A stretch of DNA of 62,851 bases, the filler included, from Basidiobolus meristosporus CBS 931.73 (taxonomy: Eukaryota > Fungi > Basidiobolomycota): the NCBI GenBank assembly GCA_002104905.1. It is 4 parts of 4 records of this genome, joined end to end, with 100 filler letters (N's around TTAATTAATTAA, not from the genome) between each part and the next. Parts side by side here need not be neighbours in the genome. Positions count along the whole stretch, not along the records: positions 29,998 to 43,825 come from MCFE01001193.1; 3 more parts are not named here. The stretch is one strand, 5' to 3'. A program made the translations under genes and the position numbers. Position 1 is the stretch's first letter. Every line of letters begins with the position of its first letter. This document shows, in pieces, positions 18,501-57,750 of this stretch. The notes below the pieces were generated by a model that was not told the origin of the DNA, did no database searches, and saw nothing but the letters and a program-made list of their open reading frames with translations.

Positions 18501-19238
18501 ATGTCTATCTACATGATAAGCGGCGACATGCCCGCTGCCTTGGAGGCCAAACACGAAGCCAAGCGGCTAACTAACAAACTCCAATCTGCGATGACCAAAG
18601 CCACCGCCTTGCTCGCTCAATCAGCCCAAGAGCCAAGGCTACGGGATAGATTTCAGGAACAGGTTTATGCAGACATCATTATCAAAGCGCAGAATCTACT
18701 AGATTGGTCGTCAACCATGTATACTTCTATCGTCCAAACTGACGATACATTGCGCGTGAGGTTGGCCAAACGATTGGCTAGACGACGGAAGGATGTGGTA
18801 TGTCTTTCCAGAATCTCCCTGAACTGATCACGTCACACTACTAAAACGTTGGTTGCCAAGGTTGCCACTGCTCTCTTGCACTTCTATGTGCTCTCTGGAG
18901 CGCTCAAATCCAAGTCCCCACTACCTCCCTACCTGCCGTCAGCCAGAGTGGCCCGACTACGCCTGCTCAACCAAATCCGGGAAATGGACATTTTCCAAGA
19001 CCTCGGCAGTCGAGCACATGACGCTGCTGCCGATGGGTTCGTTTACACCTTTTGGTACTCGTATACTGGAAGCCTCATCGAAATAGTTGAAGAGCAGGAA
19101 GAGCTGGGCGACCTGATAAAGCAGATAGTAGGCGAAATCGAGTTTGCTGATTGGGATCTACAGCCCAACTCTGACGATGCCCAAGCCACGTCGATCGATA
19201 TTTCAAGAATGGCAGATGCTGATGTCGGATCCGACTAA
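15546..19238 (+). CDS. Multi-exon aromatic-acid-exporter / fusaric-acid-resistance-like (ArAE_2_N-FUSC_2, Bre4-like) membrane transporter
   Basis: N-terminal TM cluster (PPNKTVGAQLEAS), central helical region, C-terminal FUSC_2 block (EFKFSVKF..WGL..TVGSTL..RIIGTILG..PYIARVELRK..PLPPYLPSAR). GT-AG introns join ORFs 15522-15887, 15875-16693, 16702-17940, 17867-18238, 18279-18827, 18849-19238. Confidence 0.88.
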
Positions 19239-24678: not shown

Positions 24679-25589
24679 TTTTCATCCTGAGAATGGGCAT
24701 CCAGTTAGTACTAGTATCACACGCAACGGTATTGCTCCTCTAACCCGTAAGGAGTGTAAAAGACAGATCTGTGGATCTTGCGGCCATTTTTACTGCTGAA
24801 TGCACACGACAGAGTGCCAATGCTGGTGGAAAACACTACGTTTTACGCCTGTAACATCAAGGTGTCAGTCTCATATTGATCCAAATGCTAAATGAAGCAA
24901 CCGCCAATAACAAGCCTCTATTTGGTTAGGTGTGACCAAAATGCCGAGTTTCTAAGCTCAGGATAAATAATCTAAATTCGCAGCCATCATTTCTGAATAT
25001 AAATTGCTGCGACGACTTGTAAGTTAATCACAGTACATAACCGATAGTATCGCCCAGCTCAAGAATCAAAGCATGGAGTAAACAGTGAATAACCTGAATG
25101 GCACCCGAGAACAGATTCCTCTGTGTGCAGTAATAACTCGTAGATTTCTGGCCTCCAAACTATGCTACGCCATTCCCATAGAGGCATACCTTCGACAGAT
25201 GTTATGACAAACGTTGAGCATGTTGACGGACGAGCCAATCTTTCTGGGCATTTATGGGACCTTTGAGAGCTAAAGTTGACATTCCCGTAGGTGCTTGGGT
25301 TAAGTGATGGCCCGCGTTGCAATTATGTGGCCTTGGACTTAGGGTTATTATCTGCCCTCCTCGGCTGCAATATCCAATGCCACTAATCCGACCTTGGTGG
25401 CCAATATCGCGCTCATCGATGGAGGTCAGGCAGGGAGATTCAATGTAAATACCTCGCTGTGCAGCAGTATTTCATTTGTTAACATAGACAAGAGCGTATT
25501 TTAGTGCGACCAGATGGCAGACATCCCGAGGATACTTTTAATCAATGGATCAATGATAATAAATTCTTGTCAGAAGCCATTTTTCGCCG

Positions 25590-26918
25590 AGGGTTAGGGT
25601 TAGGGGGAGGGAAAGTCACCAAGGTAGGTGAAATCTTTATTTGAATGCAGACAAGTCTAACTACAAATAAAGAAGCCAGCTGGGAATAGAAGATTCCCAA
25701 AGTAAACACTAAGTTGAATATGAATAAATCTAAGCTAAAGTTAAGGCAGTATCCCAGAGTACACTGGAGTTCAGGTTCATGGGGGAGTGAAGTAGATAAG
25801 CTTGAGAGATATAATAATCTTTGAGGAAGTGGGTAACAGCAGGTGAAGGGGAGTTTTTGATAAGTGAAGTGAATCTTGAGAGCAGAGATTCCTCTAATGA
25901 GAAGGACTTGTAAACTGGAGAATCAGGAAACTCTTTAAAGGCATGGTCAGTAGGTTCCCAGTAAAACTGGTCAGAGACATTTTGAGAGAACTCTTTAGCA
26001 ATACTTTTGTCAAGTACTACCTCCAGAGTGTGATTGTTGATAAATCTCATGTTAACAATCTTGGATAAATTGTAACCTTGTTGCTTGAGATACATCCTAT
26101 GCTCAGATATAGGAATGAACTCCACATTGGCAAAGTAGCAGACAGCCCAGTCAGTAGCAGGAGGCAAATCAGAAGTAGCAGGAAACTTTCTTTTAGTCTT
26201 GGGAGGAGCAGCAGGATGTCTTGAGGAAGCAGGAACAGGCTTTTTGACAGCTTCAGAGTAGGAAGAGTGAGCAGGAGCAGATGATTCTTGGGGAGTCTTG
26301 TTGATAGGAAGAGTTGGCACAGGGACAATAGATTCTTGCAGATCAGAGAAGGCAGAAAACAGCTTTTGAACTTGTTTCTTGAGTAAAGCATTTTCAGCTT
26401 CAACAAGTGCAAGCCTTTCCTCAAGGAAGGAAATCTGAAGGGAATGGAGTGAAGGCATAAGAAATAAGAAGAAGAGGGTAAGATGGGGTGGTGGGTGGGA
26501 AAATTAGCAGGGAGAAGAGAAGGAAGGAGCAAAAATTCCAGAAGTCAGAATTTATAGATGGATGGACAAGGGTAGATGGATGGATTATTCCTGGGTTAGG
26601 AAATTAGCAGGGAGAAGAGAAGGAAGGAGCAAAAATTCCAGAAGTCAGAATTTATAGATGGATGGACAAGGGTAGATGGATGGATTATTCCTGGTTAGGA
26701 AAATTAGCAGGGAGAAGAGAAGGAAGGAGCAAAATTCCAGAAGTCAGAATTTATAGATGGATGGACAAGGTAGATGGATGGATTATTCCTGGGTTAGGAA
26801 ATTAGCAGGGAGAAGAGAAGGAAGGAGCAAAATTCCAGAAGTCAGAATTTATAGATGGATGGACAAGGGTAGATGGATGGATTATTCCTGGTTAGGAAAA
26901 TTAGCAGGGAGAAGAGAA
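25590..26918 (-). mobile_element. Non-autonomous ORF1-only retroelement ending in telomeric repeats
   Basis: 5' ~100-bp tandem repeats, single ORF, short 3' UTR, then AATAAAGATTTCACCTACCTTGGTGAC-TTTCCCTCCCCCTAACCCTAACCCT. Further copies of the 3' end at 29737-29897 and 39140-39457. Confidence 0.8.
25730..26458 (-). CDS. LINE ORF1/Gag-like protein (242 aa; coiled coil, low-complexity linker, alpha/beta domain)
   Basis: N-terminal heptads (LEERLALVEAENALLKKQVQKL); C-terminus PSPAVTHFLKDYYIS is similar to PSYDVAYFLKNHAIS upstream of ORF2 at 39435-39677. Confidence 0.7.
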   Translation of the reverse strand: MPSLHSLQISFLEERLALVEAENALLKKQVQKLFSAFSDLQESIVPVPTLPINKTPQESSAPAHSSYSEAVKKPVPASSRHPAAPPKTKRKFPATSDLPPATDWAVCYFANVEFIPISEHRMYLKQQGYNLSKIVNMRFINNHTLEVVLDKSIAKEFSQNVSDQFYWEPTDHAFKEFPDSPVYKSFSLEESLLSRFTSLIKNSPSPAVTHFLKDYYISQAYLLHSPMNLNSSVLWDTALTLA

Positions 26919-26925
26919 GGGTTAG
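26495..26925 (-). repeat. Tandem repeat, 98-100-bp unit, about 4.3 copies
   Basis: AAATTAGCAG recurs at 26501, 26601, 26701, 26799, 26898; each unit contains (G)GGTTAGG. Confidence 0.95.
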
Positions 26926-27447
26926 GGGGAGGAAAGTCACCAAGTGGTGAAATCTTTATTTACTTATGACAAGTATCTAAAGAAGCCAAGTTAATCTGAA
27001 GTTATTCCTAGAAAGCTAGGTCTGAGAGATATCTTCCTGGTAAGCCAGGTCTGAGAGTTGAGAAGCTGAGTGGTACTATATTTCCTAGTTAGCTAGGTCT
27101 GAGAGTGGTTTCCTGGAAAGCCAGGCCTGAGAAGTGAGAATCTGAATATATCTGAGCTAAGTTATACTGGTTTGCGGTAGCTGAATTGTGGCCGGAATGG
27201 CCAGTAGACTGGGGGAACTGAGATGTATTTCTGGGCGATCACTGGCCAAATTTACTAGGCAAATCTGGCCAAGTAGCATTTCAAGGATTTCAGCCAATCA
27301 GAGCCTTTACTTTGCCCGATGGTTGATCAAGCCATCTCCCAATGAGCACACATCAATTTATTGATCAAATTTTGTTGGATCCAGGATTTGAACCCACAAC
27401 CATGGGTATGGAAGGGTTAGGGATAACCACAAGGCTAAGTGTTCTTG
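26919..27447 (-). mobile_element. tRNA-derived SINE with LINE-type 3' end and CCCTAA tail
   Basis: A-box-like TAGCCTTGTGG (27437-27427) and B-box GGTTCAAATCC (27394-27384); non-coding body; shared AATAAA-hairpin-CCCCCTAACC end. Second copy at 42515-42935. Confidence 0.7.
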
Positions 27448-29736
27448 GTTTAGGGGAGGGAAAGTCACCAAGTTGGTGAAATCTTTATTTGAGTTAAGAA
27501 CTAATCTAAGTACAAATAAAGAAGCCAATTCAGAGGTCTAGAACCTCTCTAATAAGTAATCTAATTTATGTTTTGTTTCATCTCTAATGTTTGTTTCAAT
27601 AAAGTAAAGCTCATCAGGGGTAAATATAAAATTCAGGGGTTTTGGGGGAGTACAAATTGTAGATGTTTCTGATCAATATAATCCAAGACTGGAACCCAGC
27701 CTGGGATTAGGTGCAGTAGGAAAGGTGTATGGACTTGTAAGTAGCTCTGCCACATAGATCTTAGATGGTCCTGAGCCAGTAGTCTTGGTTTCTCAGCTTT
27801 TTGAAGTTTTGAAGCAAGCTCTGTTACTACAGCAGAGCCAACCAGGGTGTGCCAGCAAGAAGATTTCAGGGAGGATTCAGATTGAAGCCATTGTTGGATG
27901 GAGGGGTTATGTGATTTCTGAAGTTTGACTAGGAAGGAAGCACGGAGATAGATCATTCGGATTTGGTATGGGTAGAACCCAAAGGCTCCATTAGTTGCAT
28001 GGATATAGGGAGATACTGGAAGATAAGGTACCAAGGATCTGATACACTGATGGAGAAATTTATCCAGGCGGTGAAGTTCTCTGGAGGTTAGGGGTATAAT
28101 GTGGAGACCAAATTCAAGTACTGGCAGCACATACTGCTTCAGAAGTATAGGGATCTTTTGAATTGGAGTGTCTGGAGTGACTACTACCAGAAGCTTTTTG
28201 AGAGCCTGTTGGGCAAGACGGATCCTATTATTCAGGTGGAGCTTGGAGTCAATCCCATGTTGACAAAACGGCAGACCTAGATATATTGCAGTTTGTTGTG
28301 GCAGAATGCTAGTGTTCTGTATAGTTGTAGTGCATCCTATTGGGACTGTCTTGGAAATTGAGAGTGAGAGGTTGTTGGCAGCCAAGTACTTCTCAATGAT
28401 GGCAGTGTCTGCTATGGGATTAGGAGTAGCAATCTTGATATCATCCGCATAGAGAGTTAGTAGTGGATAGGGAGAATCTGGTGAGGGGCCTTTTGGAAAT
28501 AAAGGAAAGTCATGTAGGAATATCACAAATAATAAGGGACCTAGTACAGATCCTTGGACTACTCCATTTGGAACCTCATAAGTCTCTGATGTACAACTTG
28601 GATGCAAAATTTTGGCTGAGTTCTCACAAAATAGAGAACGTACAAGAAGGGTCATTGGTAGTGTGGTAACTGCTAATAGCTTTCTCCAAAGCAGAGCTCT
28701 GTCCACAGAGTCAAAGGCTTTAGTAATGTCAAACAGAATGGTTGGCAATGAGAATTGAAGTGAATGATCATGGCTTAGCACTACAGCCATATCCAAGGAG
28801 AGTTTGGGCAAGAAGCCAAACTGAGAAGGATGGAATGGATATAGTTGAGATTGCAAGGATTTTGCTATTATAAGCTCAAAGATTTTCCGGCAGGTTGGTA
28901 GGAGTGAAACTGGCCGGTAAGAACCTGGGAGTGAGTGTTTCCCCTTCCCTTTGTATAAGGGTATTACATTTGCCTGTGACCAGGCCTTTGGGGTAGTCAA
29001 TTGTTGGGCACAGATAGAGTAGAATGGGAGAAGTAAGTGACTCATTTTGGAGTAGCACACCCGGAGTAGATCGTAGGTAATCAAGTCATGTCCAGGTGCA
29101 GTATTTGCAGGAAGCTTCTTTAAAATTTTCTCCAGAAGCTTTGCTGAAACCAAAATTGGAGATGTTGTACTGCTAGATATGTCACCAGTATGGTAGAAAG
29201 GAGGAGTGGGATGCACGGTTGAATCAAAGAATATAGGGGCCAGTTTGTCTGGTGATGGTATACTCCTTGCTTGGGGTCTCATGGCTTTGTATACTCTTGA
29301 TATGGACCTTGTGGTGGCATTCATATTTACTAAGGGCAAGGTATCCATGATATGAGCCCATAATCTAGTATGCTCAGTGATCTGTAGTGACTTGGAGTAG
29401 GAGATTGCGCTTTCCAGGAGGTTCTGTGTTTTTGGGTTAGGGAAACATAGGTAGCTGGAATTTAAGGCAGAAATGATGGATTTCCATTTAAGTTGGTTTG
29501 CAGATGGCTTTTGGTAGGACTTGGTGGGCAGGGCCAGACAGCCAGTGATTATGATGAAATGCTGGTAAAATAGCCATAATGCATTTATATCATCACAAAT
29601 CCATGCAGGTAAGCTGGGAAATGCATATTCTGTAAGCAAGGATAGGTAGTTTGCAAAGTCCTGTGTCTGTGATACTGAAGCTTTGGCTGGCAGGATTGTA
29701 AATGGCTGAAGAAGGGTGCCAATTGGTAGGGTTTTT
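27448..29736 (-). mobile_element. 5'-truncated LINE (RT subfamily 1) with shared 3' signature
   Basis: Uninterrupted RT frame from the 5' junction to 27633, then 3' UTR with AATAAAGATTTCACCAACTTGGTGAC-TTTCCCTCCCCTAA. Confidence 0.92.
27633..29639 (-). CDS. Non-LTR reverse transcriptase (ORF2, endonuclease lost by truncation)
   Basis: APGHDLI, YRPVSLL, DITKAFDSV, GVVQGSVLGPLLF, LYADD, YLG. Confidence 0.95.
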   Translation of the reverse strand: MLTEYAFPSLPAWICDDINALWLFYQHFIIITGCLALPTKSYQKPSANQLKWKSIISALNSSYLCFPNPKTQNLLESAISYSKSLQITEHTRLWAHIMDTLPLVNMNATTRSISRVYKAMRPQARSIPSPDKLAPIFFDSTVHPTPPFYHTGDISSSTTSPILVSAKLLEKILKKLPANTAPGHDLITYDLLRVCYSKMSHLLLPFYSICAQQLTTPKAWSQANVIPLYKGKGKHSLPGSYRPVSLLPTCRKIFELIIAKSLQSQLYPFHPSQFGFLPKLSLDMAVVLSHDHSLQFSLPTILFDITKAFDSVDRALLWRKLLAVTTLPMTLLVRSLFCENSAKILHPSCTSETYEVPNGVVQGSVLGPLLFVIFLHDFPLFPKGPSPDSPYPLLTLYADDIKIATPNPIADTAIIEKYLAANNLSLSISKTVPIGCTTTIQNTSILPQQTAIYLGLPFCQHGIDSKLHLNNRIRLAQQALKKLLVVVTPDTPIQKIPILLKQYVLPVLEFGLHIIPLTSRELHRLDKFLHQCIRSLVPYLPVSPYIHATNGAFGFYPYQIRMIYLRASFLVKLQKSHNPSIQQWLQSESSLKSSCWHTLVGSAVVTELASKLQKAEKPRLLAQDHLRSMWQSYLQVHTPFLLHLIPGWVPVLDYIDQKHLQFVLPQNP

Positions 29737-29897
29737 CTTAGGGTTAGGGGGAGGGAAAGTCACCAAGGTAGGTGAAATCTTTATTTGATTTCAGACAAGT
29801 CTAACTACAAATAAAGAAGCCAGCTGGGAATAGAAGATTCCCAAAGTAAACACTAAGTTGAGTATGAATAAATCTAAGCTAAAGTTAAGGCAGTATC
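29737..29897 (-). mobile_element. 3' end of another ORF1-only element copy
   Basis: Near-identical to 25590-25755; ends CCCCCTAACCCTAA; cut by the gap. Confidence 0.9.
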
Positions 29898-29997
29898 NNN
29901 NNNNNNNNNNNNNNNNNNNNNNNNNNNNNNNNNNNNNNNNNTTAATTAATTAANNNNNNNNNNNNNNNNNNNNNNNNNNNNNNNNNNNNNNNNNNNN
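29898..29997. other. Artificial contig spacer
   Basis: 44 N + TTAATTAATTAA + 44 N; same structure at 43826-43925 and 53576-53675. Confidence 0.98.
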
Positions 29998-32365
29998 GTT
30001 GTCTGTATCACCATCAGCAGCGCTTAATGTTTGCTTAGAATTGTTCCCCAAAGTAGCATTAGCAGTACTACTTTCAAGAACATTTTGTTGATAGTGCTCT
30101 ATTGCAATATTAGCCAGTGACTCTTGAGTCTGTGGAGCATAAATTTGACGTGCTGTCGAAGGGTGATGGTTCATAGCCGCCGCATATTTCGTCAACAAGA
30201 CCAGAGGATATGCCGTAGCTGGAACACCAACGTTGCAAGTCTTGTTGATCAAATGTGCGGTTAGAATTGGTATAGACTTGTCTAATTGCTCCCTGAAATA
30301 GGTGTCCAGTTCTCTGGGGATCTAGGCCATCTCTGCCGTTTGGGCGACTAAAAAAATAGGGATGGGACTGGCAAACAACTAGCACCGGACGCAACATCGA
30401 GATCCAAAAGATAACAAACTTTGTTAGCTCTAAAGGCAGGGTGACTCCTCTCCCTCCCGGTCTCTTGTCTTCCACTAGCTCCAGATGAAATCTCTCCTGC
30501 TTTGGATCATATAGAATATTTTGCTCTCCAGAATACCTGCTGTCCTTATCCGCATGCCTCTGCGAAGAGTGCAGCAGCATATGAGCAAAAGGTTTACAAC
30601 GTCGGCAAGGTGCAGAAATCCGAATTGCTGCGTAGAGCAACTGCTGATACCTAATTGTCAGCTGTTGGAGCAGCCGGTATGCTTGCTCACACCTCAAACT
30701 CTCCTTTAGATGCGCAATTAACTTTTCCATTGGTGTTGTGACAAAGCTCCACTTCCCAAGTGAATATTGCTGCTGCTTTGTGTAATTTTTGTTTTGAACC
30801 ACCTCATAATTCAACTCACCCCTTGGAAGCACTGTCTCCAATATAGCTTGCATACTCTCAAGAAGCCGAGAAAATAAAAATCCCACTTCTTGAGTAGTTG
30901 GTGCTTCCTCTTCCCTGGTACATTCAGTCACTCGCTTTTGCCTTCGTTCAAAAGTATGCTGGTTTTTCAATCGCCCAGCTACACTACCTAGTGCGCGTAG
31001 ATGCATCTCCACATCACAGCGTACATGCGGCTTGTCTTTTGTCTTTGGATTGTAGCAAATATTGTAAAGATATACTGCCTTCATTAAATGATGAAAGATA
31101 TTGTTCAAAGTGGATGCACTTAGTGGCGCAGAACCGTGCCTACCCTTTCGTAGCATCAAGTAGGAGTCTACGTTGGCCTTCACCCCCACTACAGCCCAAT
31201 ACGCCTGAGGGCTTCTTATATCCGGTTGGCATAGGCGCATGGAAAACAATATGAACTGCTTGATTGTCGAATTCCAGTAAACATTTGCCTGCGTGCACAA
31301 TAACCCCTTAAGACCACGGTTCCCATGGGAAATTCGGGACATTTTTTCTGGCTCTTGGTAAAATTTCTCCAGCCAAAAATTCATGAACTCAGCCCTCATG
31401 ATATTGATAAGTGCCGATTCAGATTCATTCATTGGTGTGTTATAGTGCTGAAGTAACCCCCCAAGCTGCGCAGCCTGGTCCAGATCAAGTGCTCCTTTGG
31501 TAGAAAAGTATCCAGAGCCCCCTGCTGATACTTTATTAAGTGACAAGGCTCCTCCCACCAGTCCACTTGTAGTCTCAGCTTCCACAGCGCTATTGCTCTC
31601 ATCGGAATGGGCTAAGGTGGGCAGTATTATGCTTCTAGCCGCTCTTTCAATTTCCGCAATTGACACTCTTCCTTCAGTACGCTGGACCTCATTTTGCTCG
31701 AGTATTAAATCTTCAATGACCACGTTGATATTTTCATTGCTTACAAATTGCTCCCTTCTACCTCTTGTACCACGCGCAGTGTGCGGTAGGCCATGTAGCT
31801 TCTCAGTGCTTCTTTCTTCCCCTGGGGTTGTGCAACAATTACTAAGCCCGTTTGAACAATCACCATTTGATGCCACCGGAATTGTTGCTCGAGCAATGTT
31901 CTCCTCTAATATGCCCCCGATGGATCCCCGATCTGTGCTGTATTCACTACTCATGACATCCACATCAAGGTCGCCAAAATCATTTCCAGGATCCTGATTT
32001 TCACCCAGATATTCACGCACCATGCCTACTCTGCAAGTATCGCCGCCTTTCAATCCAGGTTGGGTGCTCTTTTCTTGCTGCCCTTTCTGCGTTGCAACCG
32101 ATGTCTCCATTACCTGCCTCATTCCTAAAATGCGTACTTCCCCATTTAGTGCTACCCTTCTGTTCTTCTTGGCTCGGGAATGTTTTTTGCCACGTCGTGT
32201 TCTCTTTCTGGGATTTACGCATTGTCCATGCTGGTGACTGCTCTGGCCCTGCTCTAAGTGTAAAGTGCTTTGGGATCCGGAGGAAGTTCTAGCAGCCTGA
32301 CAGTAGTTATTCTCAACGAATATATGTTTCCCAGATGTGCTATTGCTTCCAACCCTAGCACACAA
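29998..32365 (-). CDS. Tyrosine recombinase-like protein with long acidic/low-complexity N-terminus; 1-nt frameshift near 30190
   Basis: Core-binding-like VDSYL..LSASTLNNIFHHL; catalytic-like APCRR, LVEDK, VTLPLELTKFVIFWISMLRPVL..HPYFF, QDLQR; box II YAAAMNHHPSTARQIY in the next frame. Removing one A from GACGAAATAT joins the two frames. Confidence 0.72.
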
Positions 32366-32722
32366 TTGCCACCAAATCAGTTCTTACTTGGATGCTATAT
32401 TAGCAGCGACCAAGACGCTCAAGTCCCTTCTAGAATCTTCAAAGCTCAACTTACCTTAGGTAAGACTTCTTGCCTAACTGAAAGTCCATTGCTTACAATT
32501 GTGAGTATGATTCAAGTACTTCACTAACTCTCGCGTCTGTGTCTGAATACCTTACAGAAGAGGTCTTCATTTTTATATAGCCCTGGGTGATTTACTGAAC
32601 CCCATGAAACAGACACGGGGGCATACCCTGCGGTTTTTGTTGGAGTAGACTATTTTAGTACCAACTAACGCATGACATCCATCCAACAAAGGCACATATC
32701 AAATCATTCATTACCGCATATT

Positions 32723-32938
32723 GATGAATCTTAAAACCAGATTGGCACCGCGCGGCACCAAACCTATGGTTATTCTCATCACCCTATTCTAGTATCGCAC
32801 TCTCATTTGTGCCTGATGAATCTCAATACCAAATTGGCACCGCGCGGCACCAAACCTATGGTTATTCTCATCACTATATTCTAGTATCGCACTTTCATTT
32901 GTGCCCGATGAATCCCAACACCACCGCGCGGCACCAAA
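32723..32938. repeat. 92-bp tandem repeat (about 2.4 copies) upstream of the YR gene
   Basis: GATGAATC at 32723, 32815, 32907; core CACCGCGCGGCACCAAA three times. Confidence 0.93.
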
Positions 32939-33139
32939 TGCATGTTTATCTTCATCACCATAAAACTCTTGCACCCTTTTTTATTTAGACTGTACCACTC
33001 TGACTTTTCCCTCTCCCTCTCCCTCTCCCTCTCCCACCCTTCTCGCGCAAAAAGATTAGTCTTATTTTTTATTTACCAATAGTAGCTACTACTACCTCAA
33101 GTCTGGCATACTTGATTCCTGGTACATTGCAACCCCTAT

Positions 33140-35974
33140 TTACTCCTCATCTGTCGTCTCGTCAACCTCCTCTTCATCTTCGTGCATCAGAGATCCACTG
33201 CCTTGCGCTTCATGTAATTGGCTCAAGTACCGATCATCTTGCTCTTGAAGTTGTAATGAAATTGGTACTTCGGATGCTTCATCTACCAACGTATGCGTCA
33301 TCTGGCCAAATAAGCCAATCTTACGAGTTTGACTGTCAATTACACCCTGAGCTTCAATGGAATCTTGCATGACTAACTGGTAACTAGAAACATTATTTGG
33401 TTGATTCACCCTCCAAACTCTGGCCTTTGCTTGGATTTCTACATAGGGATTCCACCAATTGTCGGCAATGATCACCGCCGATGCCATCTGCAAATTTAAT
33501 CCAAATGCGCCACATTTGATGTTGATCAGTAACACACGAATTTCGCCCTCCGGAACTGGCAATGCAAATGTATCTATACTGCTCTTTTGTATCCGAACTG
33601 GGGTGGAACCGGTAATCTTCAGATGTTCAATGCTCTGCTCCCTCAAATGGTAAGCCACTATGTCGAGCATCAGATTAAACCCAGAAAAAATAATAACACG
33701 TGCGTGCTCCTTATTTTCTTGGATTTCAAGCAGGATTTCCATGATTTTCCTAGTTTTGCCACTATGCTTGTTCACAGTGTTGTTGGTTACACCAGTGAGG
33801 AAATCTTGGATGAATAGCCTGTTGGAGTCCTCTAACGCAAGCCCTCTTTGGGCAATTGTAGGGTCGTCTTCGGTGCGTATGGCAGTTGGTGCAGAAGTAG
33901 ATGGAACGTTGGATGAGCTGTCAACCTCTTCGCTATTAATCTCTTGAAGCTGCTCCTCAACCTCAACCTCAACCGCAACCGCCTCAAGATCCTCATCAAT
34001 CTCAGGTAGAAAATCATCCTCACTCATCTCGACATCTTGGACAATGCTAACATCAGCCGCTTTTTTCAGTCAATTCCTCTTCCTACTCCAGGTATACATA
34101 TATGGATGGCATGAGTACAGACGCAGATAGGTATTTGCACCCATCCGACCGACTTCCTCTGGAAGACTTTGCTGCAGTTGTTTGTACTCCTGCAGCTCCT
34201 CCGGCAAGAATTGGCACAAGACAATCTGCTCTTGAATACTAGGCATGGATACTGCGCGTTCTCCAAATATTTGCGACTCTGGAACACGTCTCAATATTAA
34301 TGGGCCAAGTCTTTCTACAACCCATTCAACTAGCCTGTTTGCATTGGCCTCCTCAAGTAGGAGTCGATGGAAATCCTTTGGAATGCCTTCCCATAGATTG
34401 AATAATGTGAAATATGAATAAAGATCCATAATCTCATTTTGGAATGTGGTGGCAGTGACAAGTATCAAGGATTCTCCATCAATTTTACTCACTGCGTTTA
34501 AGCTACCGCCTTCGTAGTTCTTAAGTGTATCTGCCTCATCGGCCACTATTCGGCCAAATTTCACATTCCATATAGGCGAATCAGGGTTCCTTGCTTCAAC
34601 ACATAGTGTGTGGTAGGTGGTGAGCACAATCCTCTTAGTCTCCATATCTGACTTCTTGATAGCTCGGAATTTTCCATGAAATACATGAAGCTCTTCATCG
34701 GATATCCTTGTTTTTGTCTTTATCTCCATCACCCAATTGAGAAGTATTCCAAGCGTGACAACAATAAGATTTGGCCTTTGCACAGGTGTCTCCAATATGA
34801 GACTTAATATTTGCAATGTCTTTCCAAGTCCCATGGAATCGGCAAGCAATGCTCCTTTATGGATGGCCTCTGTATACATCAGCCATTGTACGCCGAATGC
34901 TTGATGGTTCTTAAGTGGGACAGTAAGACCATGGGCACTATGCCGCAAGATATTTTCAGTCTCAGCACTTCCTTCGCCTTCCCTCTCGTGCCGCTGAGAG
35001 ATTGCTGCCAATTCATTAAGAATGCGCCCTAGTAGCTGCTTTGTACTCATTTCTTCCTGACTTGGATCGGGAGGGTAAATCCAGATCTGATTATCGACAT
35101 CATAGGTGAATGTAACATTTGCATTATTGATGTATTGGATTTGGTTGCCATACTCGTTTACCACAGCAATAAAGTTTTCTCCAAGCTCCTGTATTGCTGA
35201 GTGTACATATCGTCTTTCCCAATCACCAGTTCGCAATTTTAAACAGTAGAACTCGTTTAAAAAACTCCCATTTGGTTGAGTATAAGGTGGTTCCGATGGT
35301 GTAGGATAGCCGCCCAGCAAGAATAAGCAATCAAATGCGTACGTAAGAACTGCCCAACCTCTTGCTGAAGGCATATTTGCCGGATTATTCAAGAATGGCC
35401 TTGTCTCCAATACTCTGGAGCATCCATTGCCATCTTTGTACGTGATTACCTCCAGCTTGCTCAGTCTTCTATTGATTGTCTCCCCACTCTTGCTTTGTAT
35501 CGCTTTTTTCCCCCGTTTTTTGGCACTTTCATGTCGCCCTGAGTATTCTCTACGGCTCAGCTCAAAACCACCATATATGTAGAGATTCTCGTGGTCACTA
35601 GCACAGCTGTTGCCAATTAAAATCACCCCTTTGGCTGCCTCTGTAGTTGATATGTTGTCTGGAGTTGGGAGAACTGTCACTGTGATGACTTCATCACCGT
35701 GTAGATCTGCAAGGTGAATCATTTGAACCTTTGAGCTGGGCTCATAGAGTATTCCGCGGCCGGATGTTTCTTCAGCTCTACGCTCATCATAAGGCGAGGA
35801 TATTTTGCTGTCTTGAAAGTGCTCAACAGAATACCCTCCATATAATAGCAAGTATCTCATAGACGGGGTAATGGTCATTGAGCAATAGCTGCGTTTTGTT
35901 ACACCTGCCACCGTCGCCAGGTAAACGCCAAAATGTTTCCGATGCTCCTTGTAACTGCTGGCTTCTAATGCCAT
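33140..35974 (-). CDS. Kelch-repeat / SNF2-family (Rad5/16-like) ATPase fusion, split by one in-frame TGA at 34070-34072
   Basis: Kelch GG motifs (LLYGG, YIYGG, FLLGG); motif I LADSMGLGKT, II IVADEAD, III VTAT, V GAFGLNL, DNWWNP, VI QAKARVWR. ORFs 34070-36040 and 33140-34027 are in frame, 42 nt apart. Probable ATG at 35974. Confidence 0.9.
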
Positions 35975-36165
35975 TGGGATAGGGATACAACAACTGCTGC
36001 GTGATTTATGTGACGGTGAATACTTGATAATACACCACAACTTGAAAGCTCTTAAGTACTACATACTTTACATATATTAGTCTGTAAATCGTCAATCTTA
36101 TCAGTTCAACTTATTACTTGTCAATTCATTGATTTGGGATGGTGGAAATTCTTTATTTACTCAAG

Positions 36166-37026
36166 TTAGCCAGAGGATGGCGGTGGTGATGGGGGCACAG
36201 ATAGTGATGATGGGGGAAGTGATAGCGATGAATCAACCTGTGGTATTTTTAAGATGACAATATGACTTGGTCTCTCCGCCTCCATTACAGTTACTGGTTG
36301 GCCTATAGTATCCCCACTCTGCTTCTCCACGTCTTCTTCGCACACTTCCATATCAACCTGCGTGGGGGCCATTCTCATTGTTGTGGAGGATTCTGCTCTT
36401 GTCTCTTGGCTTGTGGTAGGTTCAAGGGAGGAAGTAGTATCCCCTCCAATACTGTCGCTCGCAAGTACACCTGGGTCTGAAGATGCACCCTGCTCATCGC
36501 TTGCCCTGATGCGGGCAAACTTTTCCACCATTTGTGCCACTAATGCCTCAGTAGAATGGTGGAAACTGAAATCAATCTGGGCTTGAAGTCCAGCAATATC
36601 CCGATTTAGCTTTACAATATCACCCCTCCTCTGTTTAATCTCCTGGCACATACGTCGCAATATCTCATGGTGCGATGTTGTCCTATATTCCGGAAGCTCT
36701 TGTCAAACCTCTGACAATGCTTGGGAAACTTGGTTGACCGGCCGCCTGGTAGTGACTACAGCAACTTGCTCAGCATCATTCACGTTTGCTGCAACACCTC
36801 CTTCACGCTCCTCTTGGATTTGGCCACCTCCTTGCCCTCTTCCTCTTCCGCGCCCGGTTCCGCGTCCTCTTCCGCGTCCTTGTCCCCTTCCTCGCTCTCT
36901 TTGTTCTCTACCTTCGCTCCTGGCAGCTACCCGGCTACTGCCTGCTTCCATGCTTCTTGTTTTATGAAGGATTATGTCTACTTTCTCCACTTTTATACTC
37001 ATTCTCGGATGATGCCGGTGGCCCAT
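36166..37026 (-). CDS. Orphan protein: RG/RGG-rich N-terminus, coiled coil, S/P-rich tail; split by one in-frame TGA at 36703-36705
   Basis: ORFs 36703-37026 and 36166-36660 share a frame (SEV*QELPEYRTTSHHEILRRMCQEIK). Confidence 0.65.
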
Positions 37027-37183
37027 TCATCATATCTTTCCTTTGAGGTTACTGAGCTTCTTGATCCTACGTAACATCCGTCTAGCCAGTAATTGAATCA
37101 TTTGATGTACACATAAGTTAACTTTATTCTGTTCTTATTAAAACCCTTTTATTTTATTAAAATGCAAAACTACATTGGCAAAA

Positions 37184-37645
37184 TTATTTGGTTTCTGTAA
37201 ACATCAATTCTTGTTCCGTCTCTTGGCTGTGCGACTGTTTCTCTACAAGATCTAAGAAGTGATGCAATTGACTATCACTTAATTTATTAGTCTCTGCCTG
37301 ACTCTCCTTCATGCGCTTATACTCCAAATAAGCCACTTGGAGTACTTTATAGTGAGGCAAAGAAGAACTAAGCTGAAGTTCGTTTCGGAACTGCTCAATC
37401 GCATTGGTTCGTTTTCTCCTCAGGGCAACTGAGTCATCTGCCAATTTTTTCCGAGTTTTCTCCAGGTATTCAGGACTTCCAAAGGTACCACTACCAGAAC
37501 TGGTAATTGTACTGCTCTCCTCGCCGCAATCGTTGTCTATAGTAGACTCTTGGTCTTCCTTTGGAGCGCGAGAACTGCTATGGTAGAGGCAGCTTCCTCT
37601 TTTGGTCTTGATCCCCGAGTAGCGGTCCTTAAGCTTTCCCCTCAT
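37184..37645 (-). CDS. 153-aa orphan, basic helical protein (NLS-like RRKR)
   Basis: Intact ATG-TAA ORF, co-oriented with the cluster. Confidence 0.55.
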   Translation of the reverse strand: MRGKLKDRYSGIKTKRGSCLYHSSSRAPKEDQESTIDNDCGEESSTITSSGSGTFGSPEYLEKTRKKLADDSVALRRKRTNAIEQFRNELQLSSSLPHYKVLQVAYLEYKRMKESQAETNKLSDSQLHHFLDLVEKQSHSQETEQELMFTETK

Positions 37646-38049
37646 GGCTTGTTTATTGTCCGTGTTGGTGCTCTACTTGGTGGAGTGTCTGTGACTGCTG
37701 TTTGACTACTAGTTGTTTTCTTCTGTCCTGCAGATTTATATTACTTTCATATACACTTACTTCATCACATTTCACTTTTGCCTCTCTTGTGACTGTACTC
37801 TGGTTTCATTCCTCAACGGCTAGACAAAACCAAGGCCACCGCATATTGGGTGCGGTGGTTTAGTGATCAAAGAGCAAGCTACTGATGCTAATATTGATTT
37901 TGAGCATGTTGTCTAGGAATATCTTGGAACCAAGTTGAGTAAATAGTTACTCAATAATTCACTTAGTACCACTGTTTGCGCATAAATACTTGCTAACAAC
38001 AAAGCAATGCTTTTCTATGATGTTCGATTCCTATGCGGCTGTTTGTTGA

Positions 38050-38510
38050 TAGTCCCTACAATACACAAGTGAGCGTTTAAAGTAAGCATCCACACTACTT
38101 TCTGGGGGTATGGTTACCGCGCACTATAAAAGTGCGTTAGGGACTCAGGTAAAACTATTGTGATGAAAAATAAAAGCACTTTATTACCACGCGGCTGATG
38201 ATTGATGACTCCCGCTAGACACAAGTAAACGTAGCTAGTGGGCATCCTTAAAACCTGTTGGGGTATGGCTACTGCGTACTTTCAAAGTGCGTTAAGGATT
38301 CATACAAAATTAGCATGATGAAAAATAAAAGCATTTCAGTACCGCGCGGCTGATGATTGATGGCTCCCGCTAGACACAAGTAAACGTAGCTAGTGGGCAT
38401 CCTTAAAACCTGTTGGGGTATGGCTACTGCGTACTTTCAAAGTGCGTTAGGAACTCATGTAAAACTATCATGATGAAAAATAAAAGCACTTTTGTACCAC
38501 GTGGCTAAGT
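38050..38510. repeat. 155-bp tandem repeat (about 3 copies)
   Basis: GATGAAAAATAAAAGC at 38162, 38317, 38472; TACC(A/G)CG(C/T)GGC in each unit. Confidence 0.93.
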
Positions 38511-39139
38511 TTTACAATTCCCGCGGGATACATGTGCGCATAGAACATAAGTAGTAGTTGCGATGGTGTCAAATAAAGTTTCTATTATAGCCATAATATA
38601 TATTGAACTTTGGATACACTTTATATTTGGTAAAAGCAATCGGGTTACAGAAAATTTGTATTGGCCATGAATTTTTTTATCATATTAGGGCCGCGCAATT
38701 TATGGTGCCCGAAGCTTATCAAAATATGGGATTGTGGTCAGATTGGGATGAATCCCATTAATTATTAGATATACATTAAAATAACAATTTATTAATTAAA
38801 TAGTCATCAAGACTTATACAGAGCATATGGACAGTATGTAGGGAGACAAATATTGGCCCAGACATGCCCACTATATGAGCAGACAATGTGCCAATTGTAG
38901 GGTGAAAATATTTATGGTTAGGGTGATAAGGGTTAGGAGGAGGAATTCTAACCCTAAGGGACCAGAACCAAGAATGAGAGAAAAGTAATCCAACGGGAAT
39001 TTAAAGAGTATGGAGCAGTATGGGGGATTGCATCCCCCAAACCCCCTGCTTTTTTATTCTCTAGGGGACTGCGTCCCCCAGACCCCCTGCTCTTCTAACC
39101 TTTTCCTAGCCCTTACTATAACACCTACACCCTACCTAT

Positions 39140-39457
39140 ACTCATTAGAGGAATCTCTGCTCTCAAGATTCACTTCACTTATCAAACAACTCCCCTTCAC
39201 CTGCTGTTACACACTTCTTGAAAGATTACTGTATATCTCTCAAGCTTATCTACTTCACTCCCCCATGCAACCTGACACTCTCAGATGTACTCTGGAGATA
39301 CTGCCTTAACTTTAGCTTAGATTTATCTCATCATTGCAGACTTAGTGTTTACTTTGGGAGAATCTTCTATTCCCAGCTGGCTTCTTTATTTGTAGTTAGA
39401 CTTAGTCTGCATTCAAATAAAGATTTCACCTACCTTGGTGACTATTCCCTCCCCTAA
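39140..39457 (+). mobile_element. 3' part of ORF1-only element
   Basis: SLEESLLSRFTSLIK.. plus 3' UTR matching 25590-25900; ends CCCTCCCCTAA. Confidence 0.88.
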
Positions 39458-42400
39458 GACTCTCTACTGCTTCAACAAGCCTCCAGCCCATGTTGCCATT
39501 CTGTCTTTCTTTGCTGCCATCAAGAGACAAGCCCCCTCCTATGATGTGGCATACTTCCTCAAGAACCATGCCATTTCCCTCCTTGCTGACTTAAGTGATG
39601 CACCATTTGAAGAGCTCTGGGACTCTGCAGGTCACATTGTTAATGCTGCCTCTGAAGAAGCTACAACCTCTGCCTGACTACCTGAAGTTCTGTTGCTTAA
39701 CTGCAACAGCATACAGCCATCAAGACCAACTCTAGAGAGACTTCTTTCAAGATTTTCCCTCCTGTGTTTGATTGATGTCCAGCTACCCTCTATACTTTTG
39801 ACTAATCTATATTGCTTTTCTACTCCTAGAACAAAGAATACCTCCTCTATCTGCTTCATCTCTTCTACCATCAATACTCCTCAGCTCTGTGTTCCTCTTT
39901 ACTCCCCTTACTGTGCTGCTCTCCAGTTGCCAACTATCAGTCTGGTGCTCTGCTATCTGCCTCCAAGTCTAGCCCTTCAGGAAGTGCAAGTTATATGCCA
40001 GAAGTTCAGCAATACCAACAATCTATATCAACACCTGTTATCTTGCTTGGAGATCTCAACATTCCCCATCCTGAGAACAAGACTACTCTGACTGCAAGAA
40101 TGAAGCCAAGGTCTACATTCCTACTGAACTTCCTGAGAGAAAGCCACCTGCTAGCACTAGGTGCTCAATCTGAGAAAAGATGTGTTGACTGGATCTGCCC
40201 TTCTGCTGCTGCCCTCTACTTTGTGAATGAAGTTAAGCAATTCTCTGGAGCTGAGCTAGGATCCTTGAGAGCCTCTGACCACCCAGCCTGGTCCCTTTCT
40301 ATGCAACCAGTTGTGAAGAAGAAGCTGCCAAAACTTACTGTGCTCACCCACAAAGCTACCAAGAATCAGAAGAAAGACTTTGGGAACTACTTGAAGCTTG
40401 CCAGTTTGCTACTTTCTCTGCCAGATGATCTCAACTTTGCCTGGCTCTTTGTGAAGCATCTGATTCTGGTGTCTGCCTCCCTCTCACTGCCATGCAAGAC
40501 TACTGCTGTTACCTCAAGAAAATGGGAATCCATTGTTTCAGCCCTGCAACAAAGCTACCTGAGCTTCCCTAACCCAAAAACAGAGAAACTCCTCCTGACA
40601 GCAATACACCACTCCAAGGCAATTCACCACACTCTGCATACTCAGCTCTGGGATCATATTATGAGTTCCTTGCCTCTGCAATCTTCCAACTCTATAACAA
40701 GAACAGTATCAAGACTCTACAGGGCAATGAGGCCCTCTTCCAGGAAGTTACCTTCAACAGAACAGCTGGCTAACATCTTCTTCTCTACAAAGCAGTACTC
40801 AACTCCTGGCTTTCATCCTGACTTCAAGACTCTGCCCATCCCACTTGCACTTGATCAAAGGAGAATCCATAATGTGCTCAAGAGGCTTCCCAACTCTACT
40901 GCTCCAGGTGTGGACACAATCTCCTATGAGCTTCTGAAGACTAGTACCAAGGCCATGTCTGCACTTCTGCTTCCACTGTTTCAGCAATGCTCAGCCCAGC
41001 TTTCTACTCCTGAGGAATGGTCCTTTGCAAATGTTCTGCCACTGTACAAGGGTAAAGGAAAGCACCTGGATCCTAGCTCCTACAGGCCAATATCTCTGCT
41101 GCCCACCTGCAGAAAGGTGTTTGAGCTTCTGCTTGCTCAGGAGCTCTACTCTGACTCCCTCAAGTTTCATCCTGCACAGTTTGGCTTTGTTCCTGGCCTC
41201 TCCTTGGAATATGCAGTCATACTTAGCCAAGATCACTCTCTCCAGTGCAAGTATCCCTCTGTTCTGTTTGATATTACTAAGGCCTTTGATTCAGTTGACA
41301 GAAATCTGCTTTGGTCCAAGTTGCAATGCTTCTCCAGTACCTCTCTCACCCTCCTTGTCAGGTCTCTGTTTCTGGATCCACAAGCAAGAATTCTGCACCC
41401 AAGTGAGCAATCAGCTGTGTTCTCAGTTCCTAATGGAGTGGTTCAAGGCTCTGTGCTTGGTCCTATACTGTTTGCCATCTTCCTGAATGATTTCCCAAGA
41501 CTCTCAGCTGACTGCCTGGTTACTCTCTTTGCTGATGACATCAGAATATCCTCCTCCAATGTGCAACAAGACTCCCAGACCATCCACCAGTATCTGCAGA
41601 AGAATAATCTCCAGCTTTCCATTGCAAAGACAGTACCTTTGGGCTCTCCCATCAACTTGGAGAACTCCACTCTACCTGCTCAGGTTTCTGCTACATATCT
41701 TGGCTTTCCTTTCCTTCCTACTGGACTAGACTCTGGAGCACACCTGAAGAAGAGAATTATCCTGGCAAGACAGGCACTCCACAAGCTACTGGCTGTTACT
41801 CCTCCTACAACTTCAGCTCCCAGCTGCCTCCTTCTACTCAAGCAGTTTGTCTTCCCTGTCCTGGAATTTGGCTTACCACTTCTCTCTCTTACTTCTAGAG
41901 ACTGCACTAAGCTTGACAAGTTTGCAGTATGGTGCATTACCTCCTTGGTGCCTCATTTGCCTGAATGCCCCTACAGACATGCTATTCTTGGTGCTTTTGG
42001 GTTTATGCCCTATAAGATCAGACTTCTCTACCTTAGAACCAGATTATACCTCAGACTTCACAACTGCAACAACCCACTGATTAAGGCCTGGAAGAGAACA
42101 CACCACACAACACCTGGCTCCTGCTGGAGAACTATACTTGGAGATCCTGAAGTCAAGAAGTTTGCTCACTATATTCTGCAGTCAGAAAAACCCAAGCTGG
42201 CCTACCTGAAGTACTTGACAGACCTTTGGCAGCAATATCTGCAGCAGCACACTCCCTTTATGATGAATATCAATCCTTATCACATTCCCCTCATTAATGT
42301 TGTTCACAAGTCATTCTTACCTCTCTTGCTACCCCCCTTCCCACTGAACAGTGTCTTGAGCACTGAAGAACTATCATCACTTCTTATTAACTTACCTACA

Positions 42401-42514
42401 AATTCCCCTCAGCTACACACTCTTGTATCAAAGCTACAACAGTAGCGCTGGCTTCTTTGTTTCAACTGAAATAAAGATTTCACCTGTTGGTGACTGTCTC
42501 CCCCCCTACCTAAC
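39458..42514 (+). mobile_element. LINE (RT subfamily 2): ORF1 C-terminal remnant + APE endonuclease-RT ORF2, shared 3' signature
   Basis: ORF1 tail 39458-39677; APE motifs NCNS, CYLPP, ILLGDLN, VDW, SDH (frameshift near 40010-40040); RT FADD; ends AATAAAGATTTCACCTGTTGGTGAC..CCCCCTACCTAA. Confidence 0.93.
39693..42445 (+). CDS. ORF2: apurinic-type endonuclease + reverse transcriptase (one frameshift)
   Basis: ORFs 39693-40091 and 39995-42445; homologous to 27633-29639. Confidence 0.93.
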
Positions 42515-42935
42515 ACTAGCTGTATCCAACTTCATACCATGTTGTCAATCTGATCAGCAATTGATATAATGATGTGCTCATTGAGATGCTTGATCAACCA
42601 TCTGGCAAGTAAGCTCTGATTGCTGAATCCTTGAATGCTAATTGCCAGATTTGCCTAGTAATTTGCCAGTGATCGCCAGAAATTCTCTCAGTTCCCAGTC
42701 TACTGCCATCGGCACAATTCAGCTACGCAACAGTATACTTAGCTCAGATATATTCAGATTCTCACTTCTCAGCTGGCTTCAGAAACCTCTCTCAGACCTA
42801 GCTAACTAGAATATAGTACACTCAGCTTCTCACTCTCAGACCTGCTTACAGGAAGATATCTCTCAGACTAGCTTTCTAGATACTTCAGATTAACTTGCTT
42901 CTTAGATACTTGTCATAAGTAAATAAAGATTTCAC
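42515..42935 (+). mobile_element. Second copy of the tRNA-headed SINE, with systematically shortened homopolymers
   Basis: Collinear with the reverse complement of 26930-27440 but with many single-base deletions in runs. Confidence 0.85.
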
Positions 42936-43660
42936 TCACTTGGCTGTTACTCCTCCTACAACTCACTCCAGCTGCCTCCTTCTACTCAAGCAGTTTGTCT
43001 TCCCTGTCCTGGAATTTGGCTTACCACTTCTCTCTCTTACTTCTAGAGACTGCACTAAGCTTGACAAGTTTGCAGTATGGTGCATTACCTCCTTGGTGCC
43101 TCATTTGCCTGAATGCCCCTACAGACATGCTATTCTTGGTGCTTTTGGGTTTATGCCCTATAAGATCAGACTTCTCTACCTTAGAACCAGATTATACCTC
43201 AGACTTCACAACTGCAACAACCCACTGATTAAGGCCTGGAAGAGAACACACCACACAACACCTGACTCCTGCTGGAGAACTATACTTGGAGATCCTGAAG
43301 TCAAGAAGTTTGCTCACTATATTCTGCAGTCAGAAAAACCCAAGCTGGCCTACCTGAAGTACTTGACAGACCTTTGGCAGCAATATCTGCAGCAGCACAC
43401 TCCCTTTATGATGAATATCAATCCTTATCACATTCCCCTCATTAATGTTGTTCACAAGTCATTCTTACCTCTCTTGCTACCTCCCTTCCCACTGAACAGT
43501 GTCTTGAGCACTGAAGAGCTATCATCACTTCTTATTAACTTACCTACAAATTCCCCTCAGCTACACACTCTTGTATCAAAGCTGCAACAGTAGTGCTGGC
43601 TTCTTTGTTTCAACTGAAATAAAGATTTCACCTGTTGGTGACTGTCTCCCCCCCTACCCT
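42933..43660 (+). repeat. Near-identical duplicate of the LINE 3' end (41790-42514)
   Basis: ORF 42940-43593 is almost identical to the last ~215 aa of ORF2, including the 3' signature. Confidence 0.93.
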
Positions 43661-43825
43661 CACCAAAATACCAGGTACCCAGAACATGAAAATTCTCAAA
43701 GTTGTCCAAACAGCCCCAAACTTTGCACACATACTCTTGGGACCTTCCTTAACCTAATCTACATGTTTGTAATGCCAAGACCAGGTAAAAGTATAAATAC
43801 TACTCTTACATTCAATAAATCATTA
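43661..43825 (+). repeat. Copia family A LTR fragment
   Basis: Matches 5845-6005; cut by the gap. Confidence 0.88.
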
Positions 43826-56600: not shown

Positions 56601-57750
56601 TGAAAATTGCAAGCCTGCAGTTACCCCTATGGACAATAATCTAGAATTGAGCAAATCTAAGCCAGTTTTAGGTAAAAATAGCTCAAACATCACCAAAACT
56701 TTCCCTATCAATCAATGATGAGCAGCCTAATGTACTTGATGGTGTCTACATGTCTTGATATTGCAGTGGCAGCTGGATTAGTCAGTCAATTAATGCAGAA
56801 TTATGGATCAAATCAAATTACAGCAGTTAAGCGGATTTCAGATATCTACAAGGTAACATGAATATAGTACTGGAATACTCTGGAGCAGGTAATAGGCAGA
56901 AGTTTGATGGTTATAGTGATTCAGACTGGGGAAGAGATCTGATTGACAGATGCTCTACTGCTGGGTATGTATTTCTTTATGCAGATGCAGCTATTACTTG
57001 GAATTGCAAGAAGCAACCAACTGTGACACTATCTACAACTGAAGCTGAATACATGGCTGCTTGCCAAGCAACTAAGGAGGCTATATGGCCACAGAAATTA
57101 CTCAAAGACTTAGACTTTAATTCAGATGAACCAACATGTACTTACAAAAATAATCCAAGTTGTATAGCATTAGATAGGAATCCTACAAATCACGCCAGAA
57201 CTGAGCAAATAGATGTACAACACCACTTTGTGGGGGAAGCTGTAGAAAATAACTTAGTAGAGTTAGTTTACTGTCCAACTGACAAAATGGTGGCAGATAT
57301 ATTGACAAAGCCACTAGCTAGACTAGAATTTGAGAGTCTCAGAGGGGAATTAGGATTAAGAAATATTTAGTTGAGGGGGAGTGTTGAAATATTAAGCTAT
57401 TTGGTTTCATTCAGCAGCTAAAAACTTACTTAGAAATTCTAGACTAGTATTGGTTACTGTAGGACTTATTTGCAGCCCAACTTTGCCAGTTTCTTCACAT
57501 CTATGATCCTATGATTTTTCCCATATTGTGAAGATCATATCAGCACTTTTTACCAAACATTATGTACTAACCATGAAACTGTTACAGAATGCTCCTGAAT
57601 GTTAAGAAACCCTCCTTAATTAGTGTTGCAGTTGTAATACTTCTACAAAGGTATAAATACTGATCCTCTTTATGAATAAACAATAGTTCAACAATTATCA
57701 CTATATCCTGATAAGTTCCTTGTATCCAAATCACTTCTTACATTGCCATA
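53676..57750 (+). mobile_element. Nearly complete degenerate Ty1/Copia element (LTR family B)
   Basis: 5' LTR end at 53761; PBS GGCTATGAGCCC; gag (FDGRNYRLW, zinc knuckle remnant), protease (WYIDSGA), integrase, RT/RH with internal deletion; PPT GAGGGGGAG; 3' LTR from 57382. Confidence 0.93.

Follow-up and report, generated by a model that had tools for sequence, protein, structure and literature searches.

The genome of Basidiobolus meristosporus CBS 931.73, a fungus that lives in the gut of amphibians and reptiles, harbours an undescribed family of elements that combine a tyrosine recombinase (YR) with a SNF2 ATPase and that have undergone an unusual one-ended amplification, their ends and the engine of their spread being unproven. 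The element was studied in a window of 62,851 nucleotides (the whole stretch of DNA analysed, joined from separate records of this genome), in which positions 29998-43825 correspond to a single record of 13,828 bp; all element coordinates are those of the whole stretch. Its four co-oriented reading frames encode two orphan proteins, a Kelch-SNF2 protein and the YR. On a reading that we hold tentatively, and with a little less than even confidence, the element is specific to Basidiobolus and its dozens of young copies were made by the reverse transcriptase (RT) of a long interspersed nuclear element (LINE) rather than by its own YR.

The reading frame at 30-32 kb is identical to K493DRAFT_309533 of the same strain. 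What an earlier interpretation made without database searches (hereafter the sequence-only reading) had taken for a real gap at 29898 is a spacer of Ns (29898-29997), with the six-frame stop TTAATTAATTAA, which joins separate records and lies outside the element; the field of transposable elements on its other side thus cannot be taken as a neighbour of the element.

Results

Identification of the recombinase

The 30-32 kb protein is a YR, as the sequence-only reading had maintained: catalytic residues, a match to the XerC/XerD fold and an HHalign alignment to cyanobacterial integrases all agree. The Atlas model of its intact paralog P0124 (828 amino acids (aa), on a 202-kb contig) aligns over about 290 residues with XerC/XerD (TM 0.74 by target) and also matches Phage_integrase clusters; the Atlas clusters closest to it are unnamed eukaryotic ones (algal, diatom and cnidarian). 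P0124 carries the catalytic set R580, K625, R702, H724 and Y733 in the order R...K...(H)xxR...H...Y, with the first catalytic His replaced by Arg (R699-x-x-R702) at a site that also varies in the cyanobacterial family. A relative of the YR exists in Basidiobolus ranarum (P0003; locus KAK9659851), and a tblastn search with it gave 11 records, the best of them an integrase from a Nostoc plasmid (E 1e-3). When five Basidiobolus YRs were compared by HHalign with 11 cyanobacterial plasmid YRs (P0151, P0152 and nine more out of the 22 records of that family), a probability of 96.7% and an E of 4e-10 were obtained over 183 columns. PF00589 is matched by eight of these 11 sequences, P, R, H and Y are invariant in the joint alignment of both groups, and joint profile A5 (three Basidiobolus and 11 cyanobacterial rows) retrieves Xer/Int structures.

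Taken alone, the Basidiobolus YR proteins gave no YR match in Pfam, PHROGs or NCBIfam, so that standard annotation misses the family, and sequence searches of the PDB with the window protein and with a five-row profile were equally without a match. A phmmer search of 1.84 billion representatives with P0003 returned two proteins only, both from Basidiobolus. No relatives were found in the viral or metagenome contigs searched, and tblastn against phages yielded just three records, at E 6-10. The idea of a protelomerase was tried and set aside, by the weak test that neither TelN nor lambda Int, each taken as a single sequence, was matched by the profile.

Within the window, the YR gene (minus strand, from 32489 to beyond 29998) is a dead copy: the record end cuts its last ~48 codons, a one-base frameshift lies near 30195, and the catalytic Arg equivalent to R702 of P0124 is Gln, at a position where most reads carry an Arg codon. 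An intron is predicted at 32454-32289. The first YR subfamily comprises four records, three of which lose their 3' side: P0002 and P0125 are 'partial' entries, and the window copy runs into the end of its record. A second subfamily in B. meristosporus, to which accession ORX76526 belongs, comprises two proteins, P0135 (25-kb contig) and P0126 (345-kb contig). Identity between the subfamilies is 61% in the core and 21% in the N-terminus. Because the catalytic part is 66-70% identical in the second subfamily and in P0003 (66% for the latter) while the N-termini are so divergent, the YR must have been under long-term constraint. The N-terminus of the second subfamily is unrelated to that of the first.

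Accessory genes and dispersed copies

A gene of 945 codons at 33140-35974 (minus strand) encodes a Kelch-like N-terminus followed by a SNF2 ATPase. Pfam matches were obtained for SNF2-rel_dom (E 5e-31), Helicase_C (E 6e-17) and, weakly, Kelch (E 7e-4), and the helicase motifs are all present (Walker A LADSMGLGKT, DEAD, TAT, IIFS, GLNL and QAKARVWR); a premature TGA at 34070-34072 (codon 635) is a sense codon in the family majority. The closest SNF2 matches, confined to proteins of 1111-3170 aa, do not exceed ~31% identity and are bacterial and Rad5/16-like alike, and in a tree built by a quick method (117 rows, 282 columns) the window protein, on a branch of 4.4-4.7, is unplaceable. Orphan 2, RGG-rich and with a coiled coil, lies at 36166-36951 (minus strand) and measures 261 aa in intact paralogs; its window copy has a premature TGA at 36703-36705. 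Orphan 1 is a reading frame for a basic protein of 153 aa at 37184-37645 (minus strand), for which no family match and no paralog were retrieved, and which is a probable gene. The sequence-only reading had described four tightly packed minus-strand genes; four co-oriented frames are indeed found. The YR is the 3'-most of the four, an order that the locus numbers on two other contigs repeat.

Two tandem arrays accompany these genes. A 92-bp array of ~2.6 copies with CCGCGCGG palindromes stands upstream of the YR (32722-32962; CpG observed/expected ratio 1.09), and a 155-bp array of ~3.3 copies spans 38027-38535; within it, at 38174, a derivative with an internal deletion has its right breakpoint. 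They have 12 seven-mers in common, a number reached by three of 2000 shuffles; these words are not colinear. The core that the sequence-only reading had seen in both arrays exists as the exact 10-bp string ACCGCGCGGC, but by itself it is weak evidence, since 78 of 2000 shuffles equal it.

Neither of the objections that the sequence-only reading had foreseen applies: the YR fold is there, and the cassette is multi-copy and dispersed, not single-copy and syntenic. The orphan-2 cluster has 20 members (15 listed, on 16 contigs of 14-266 kb), the Kelch-SNF2 is represented by eight proteins, all fragments, on eight contigs, and three of the four frames have paralogs, most of which are >90% identical to the window in their first alignments. 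Kelch-SNF2 and the RGG/coiled-coil orphan accompany the YR on at least 16 contigs at >90% identity; their accessions are adjacent on contigs of 19,725 and 19,274 bp, and orphan 2 and the YR are two locus numbers apart on contigs of 202,103 and 265,035 bp.

The window copy of the element is dead, and the family is mutating as methylated DNA does, since of the 189 non-synonymous CpG-loss changes possible, 70 (37%) were found among 23 paralogs, against 49 of 2429 for other transitions and 41 of 7404 for transversions. Host genes have a CpG observed/expected ratio of 0.78, the element genes one of 0.57-0.67 and the neighbouring repeats one of 0.01-0.18. Where the sequence-only reading had reported a normal CpG content within a CpG-starved field, the values of the element are near normal, owing to the youth of the burst, but lie below those of host genes and are falling by decay of the methylation type. 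The element is thus no unmethylated island, and its CpG content is not supported as a sign of escape from silencing. The best candidate for a master copy lies on the 202-kb contig, around ORY03813-ORY03815: its proteins P0124 and P0138 show one and zero CpG losses, respectively, relative to the window.

Copy number along the element

Read depth was followed in runs X1-X4, all of one sample, with the provisos that contig depth is not copy number and that the copy figures below are probably underestimates, as divergence breaks 31-mers. In X1, single-contig depth is 1291 at 30234 and 11328 at 37984, a rise of about ninefold. Set against divergent single contigs as the single-copy yardstick (median depth 121 for ten chosen pieces, 124 for 16 listed), this corresponds to ~90 copies at the right end and ~11 at the YR, with a halving distance of ~2.2-3 kb. 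Depth correlates with position at a Spearman rho of 0.93 in X1, for 15 of the 16 single-contig rows; the values are 0.92 for nine rows of X2, 0.93 for eight pieces of X3, and 0.93 again for 17 bins in each run. The annotated proteins follow the same direction, at 20 : 8 : 4 for orphan 2, SNF2 and YR. A joint 30056 -> 38174, produced by internal deletion, has a depth of 550 (~4-5 copies). Runs X5-X7, from organism B, contain next to none of the words, X5 covering only the hairpin segment described below and the LINE.

The right boundary and the adjacent retroelements

The sequence-only reading had placed the element at 29998-38900. A multi-copy unit does lie there, but the amplified unit reaches 39134 and is then followed by unit X, a non-coding sequence resembling a short interspersed nuclear element (SINE). 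The added segment (38900-39134, plus strand) is CpG-poor (observed/expected ratio 0.16), contains degenerate TAACCC repeats ending in CCCTA, and is a hot spot of LINE insertion; two GGGG/CCCC hairpin units lie at 39019-39103. In the low-depth runs X3 and X4, where the family collapses to one path, depth is the same over 38775-39134 and the head of unit X follows directly. In the window copy a LINE (39135-42505, plus strand) separates 39134 from unit X (42508-42940, plus strand), and in other copies different LINE pieces are joined at 39134. This LINE consists of an ORF1-tail unit (39141-39455) and an endonuclease-RT unit (39457-42505), its RT being of the RVT_1 family, with weak Exo_endo_phos matches.

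Unit X, the ORF1-tail unit and the RT unit of the LINE end alike, in AAATAAAGATTTCAC followed by GGTGAC, a C-run and TAACCC-like letters. Eight LINE/X 3' motifs occur in the window, all with the C-run and TAACCC-like tail except one that is broken by another LINE piece. LINE depth rises in the same direction as that of the element, with a halving distance of 1.3-2.2 kb. The record to the left of the spacer ends in a head-to-tail LINE/X array whose 3' ends face host genes, with (TAACCC)2 at the junction with host DNA (25594-25605), and the array in the record at 29998-43825 terminates within another dispersed repeat at 43660. The LINE family is possibly a telomere-repeat-targeting retroelement system of Basidiobolus.

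Several further observations concern these repeats and their surroundings. The hairpin units also match a 6,959-bp contig of run X5, and they therefore belong to an older and wider repeat. The head-to-tail LINE/X arrays extend over 25594-29897 (minus strand) and 39135-43660 (plus strand), and a 100-bp tandem array at 26498-26920 (4.3 copies, 96% match), which includes CCTAACC units and has no CpG, lies inside the former. A second copy of unit X occupies 27447-26915 (minus strand); compared over 26900-27450 and 42510-42650, the copies differ almost only by homopolymer indels, in opposite directions, which are likely errors of long-read consensus, so that some frameshifts in the assembly may be artefacts. 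The tRNA-like look of the head of unit X found no support in Rfam. By eye, CpG-depleted fragments of Ty3/gypsy-type (with a chromodomain-like tail) and Ty1/copia-type open reading frames were recognised at 285-3800 and 54358-57370, and a multi-exon, transporter-like host membrane-protein gene at 15872-18827, in a CpG-normal region.

Discussion

The one-sided truncation and the LINE-type right end of the present copies point to an engine other than the YR. We envisage two layers of activity. In the older one, the YR would have moved the element as DNA, by excision to a circle and crossover into a short target, as suggested by the chemistry of the YR family (PMC13465315); the SNF2 motor may have helped it by opening or clearing chromatin, with the Kelch and RGG proteins possibly serving as adaptors. 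In the recent burst, a plus-strand RNA, antisense to the genes, would read through into unit X, and the LINE machinery would recognise this RNA by its X end and copy it by target-primed reverse transcription at CCCTAA-like sites. Early stops of the RT would leave copies cut on the YR side, later to be methylated and to decay. The YR gene models keep their intron, so copying from DNA or from an antisense RNA fits, and copying from sense mRNA does not. A fuller version of this scenario, which we regard as possible but on balance doubtful, would have a new lineage of eukaryotic YR element, with a YR closest to cyanobacterial plasmid integrases and equipped with its own Kelch-SNF2, become a 10-kb antisense passenger of TAACCC-tailed LINE/SINE arrays at chromosome ends.

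A number of points weigh against copying by the LINE. The antisense read-through RNA is itself a conjectural step, reads show only 24-28 bases of X past 39134, and the completeness of X is seen in the window copy only. The X1 correlation falls to 0.67 if a divergent contig of depth 95 is kept (16 of 16 rows). Neither a left breakpoint nor a target-site duplication nor an empty site was seen, and the left end of the window copy is cut by the record end at 29998. As for the element as such, no intact 945-aa Kelch-SNF2 was retrieved, the longest paralog having 634 aa; for copies other than that of the window, the adjacency of YR and SNF2 is deduced from locus numbers; and AlphaFold predictions of the YR (pLDDT 38 from a single sequence, 42 from five rows) were too poor to judge its fold. 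The Foldseek (PDB and viral) and VIA-align searches run with these low-pLDDT models produced no significant match and are uninformative rather than negative.

The gradient in particular has a second possible source, which is the main rival explanation. The element may instead be a chromosome-end element of the telomere-linked-helicase (TLH) or yeast Y' kind, lying distal to the TAACCC-tailed arrays and eroded from the YR side. Its genes would read toward the end, and it would get to new ends either through recombination between ends or through a YR crossover that targets telomeric repeats. Erosion of this sort would yield the same one-sided gradient, it agrees with the loss of the 3' side in three of the four subfamily-1 YR records and with the LINE/X array and (TAACCC)2 at the end of the neighbouring record, and nested terminal truncation is documented in Pyricularia (PMC8381367). 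We nevertheless consider it rather unlikely: ~90 copies would require ~90 ends, both ends of the 29998-43825 record are devoid of a telomere array, the LINE/X array there runs into another dispersed repeat at 43660, and the 9 kb seen contain no RecQ gene. TTAGGG is the usual fungal telomere repeat. This explanation and copying by the LINE are compatible, in that such copying may occur at chromosome ends. Less probable still is a two-ended YR transposon, a Crypton in the broad sense, with its left terminus past the record end and internal-deletion derivatives mobilised in trans by an intact master. The 202-kb contig does carry an intact YR and an intact orphan nearly free of CpG loss, the two arrays with common words are of subterminal type, and the joint 30056 -> 38174 fits a two-ended DNA transposon as well as it fits copying by the LINE, but that joint is listed in X1 only of the two deep runs. 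Moreover, depth falls smoothly over 9 kb without recovery leftward, and the right end is an old CpG-poor repeat with a LINE-type 3' end, with no terminus specific to the element.

A viral origin, as a fragment of a Polinton-like virus (PLV) or nucleocytoplasmic large DNA virus (NCLDV) with YR and SNF2 that was amplified after integration, is very improbable. PLVs use YR integrases (PMC12220804), the orphan genes are dense and nearly intronless, and Atlas lists NCLDV SNF2 clusters at 0.83-0.84, while the clusters that it puts closest to the YR are unnamed ones of algae, diatoms and cnidarians. These viral SNF2 scores, however, stay under the lead threshold of 0.9, the YR has a predicted spliceosomal intron, neither capsid nor packaging ATPase nor polymerase was found in 29998-39134, and no relative appeared among the viral or metagenome contigs searched. 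The link to NCLDVs drawn in the sequence-only reading thus comes down to Atlas leads below 0.9, with no viral loci found.

Comparison with described elements

The closest sequence match found to the Basidiobolus YR is a family of cyanobacterial plasmid 'site-specific integrases' (Nostoc WP_179076821.1, P0151), with which it has P-x-R-x-R, the K hairpin, HPYxF, xxxR, AxxMxH and QIY in common. Identity is 15-25%, however, the Basidiobolus branch is long and its placement unresolved, and the cyanobacterial proteins are bacterial, with no SNF2 among the annotated neighbours at two loci with wide flanks. In this family the YRs are long (~570-870 aa), most of the 22 records are annotated as hypothetical, and the genes sit on small, mostly non-mobilizable plasmids.

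Among eukaryotic elements, the sequence-only reading had found no named family that fits, and the element indeed fails the tested defining features of Starships, CryptonA and DIRS/Ngaro. Four kinds of fungal YR element, namely Cryptons, DIRS, Ngaro and Starships, are listed in an account of June 2026 (PMC13465315). DIRS, Ngaro and VIPER have their own RT-RNase H gene beside the YR; the element has no RT in 29998-39134, the nearest being that of the separate, high-copy LINE, and by this test it is not a DIRS. With Cryptons, including CryptonA/Glomhopper, it shares a eukaryotic host, a YR and the lack of an RT of its own (same account, PMC13465315). Cryptons are simple, however, with a YR and at most one further gene, whereas the element has four co-oriented genes including SNF2, one-sided truncation and no DUF3504 match, in keeping with the earlier statement that it is not a compact Crypton. 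Starships are likewise fungal and combine a YR with further genes, but, as described in PMC11162782, they place a DUF3435 captain first, carry variable cargo and belong to Pezizomycotina; the element lies outside Pezizomycotina, has fixed accessories and has its YR last, at the 3' side. By the tests run its YR is no Starship captain, as the sequence-only reading had judged. Neither DUF3504 nor DUF3435 was matched at E <= 10 by P0124, P0003, P0135 or P0126.

The ancestral cut-and-paste enzymes of the IS3EU and En/Spm groups are DDE enzymes, and no DDE transposase, whether of IS3EU or En/Spm type, was found in the 9 kb of the element seen. The Intons and Entons of Kapitonov, which descend from these two groups, resemble the element in being fungal DNA transposons with five to six conserved proteins, one of them a SNF2 helicase (PMC3520738, PMC3627910); the recombinase of the element, by contrast, is a YR. 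The pairing of YR with SNF2 nevertheless parallels their pairing of a cut-and-paste transposase with SNF2.

In its one-sided truncation, head-to-tail arrays and telomere-like joins the element recalls the terminons of bdelloid rotifers and MoTeR/FoTeR, which are multi-ORF, mostly 5'-truncated and arranged head to tail with short telomeric joins (PMC6431247). According to the same text, terminons need a 3' hammerhead and a Penelope-type RT (PMC6431247), whereas the RT of the element would be that of an endonuclease-bearing LINE acting in trans, and Rfam gave no match, to a hammerhead ribozyme or otherwise, at E <= 1 in 25400-43825. Unlike these systems, the element carries a YR and SNF2, and the RNA that is copied would contain its genes in antisense orientation. 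TLH repeats and yeast Y' are similar in being multi-copy, ATPase-encoding blocks beside telomere-like repeats. Their ATPase is a RecQ/DEAD helicase and not SNF2, as it is here, the YR of the element is free-standing (no helicase domain was found in P0124 or P0135), and a chromosome-end position of the element is not shown. Y', HeT-A and TRAS/SART are further parallels for sequences of this kind.

No description of an element with YR and Kelch-SNF2 was encountered in the literature searched, most subscription papers, Repbase Reports and supplements lying outside its scope; Repbase Reports may detail the families of Kapitonov, and YR lists accompanying the Starship and Glomhopper surveys could include these proteins. 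The available parts of PMC10386755, PMC10799480 and PMC8381367 do not describe the element. The one-sided gradient and the LINE-type end leave two main alternatives, a gene block of 10 kb carried along by a LINE that acts in trans and a Basidiobolus counterpart of Y' at chromosome ends. If the engine was switched as proposed, an element of the DNA-recombinase kind would have turned into a telomeric retroposon, and multi-gene blocks would be copied to fungal telomeres. By analogy with Intons and Entons, the presence of SNF2 beside a YR suggests that large fungal DNA elements recruited a SNF2 motor more than once.

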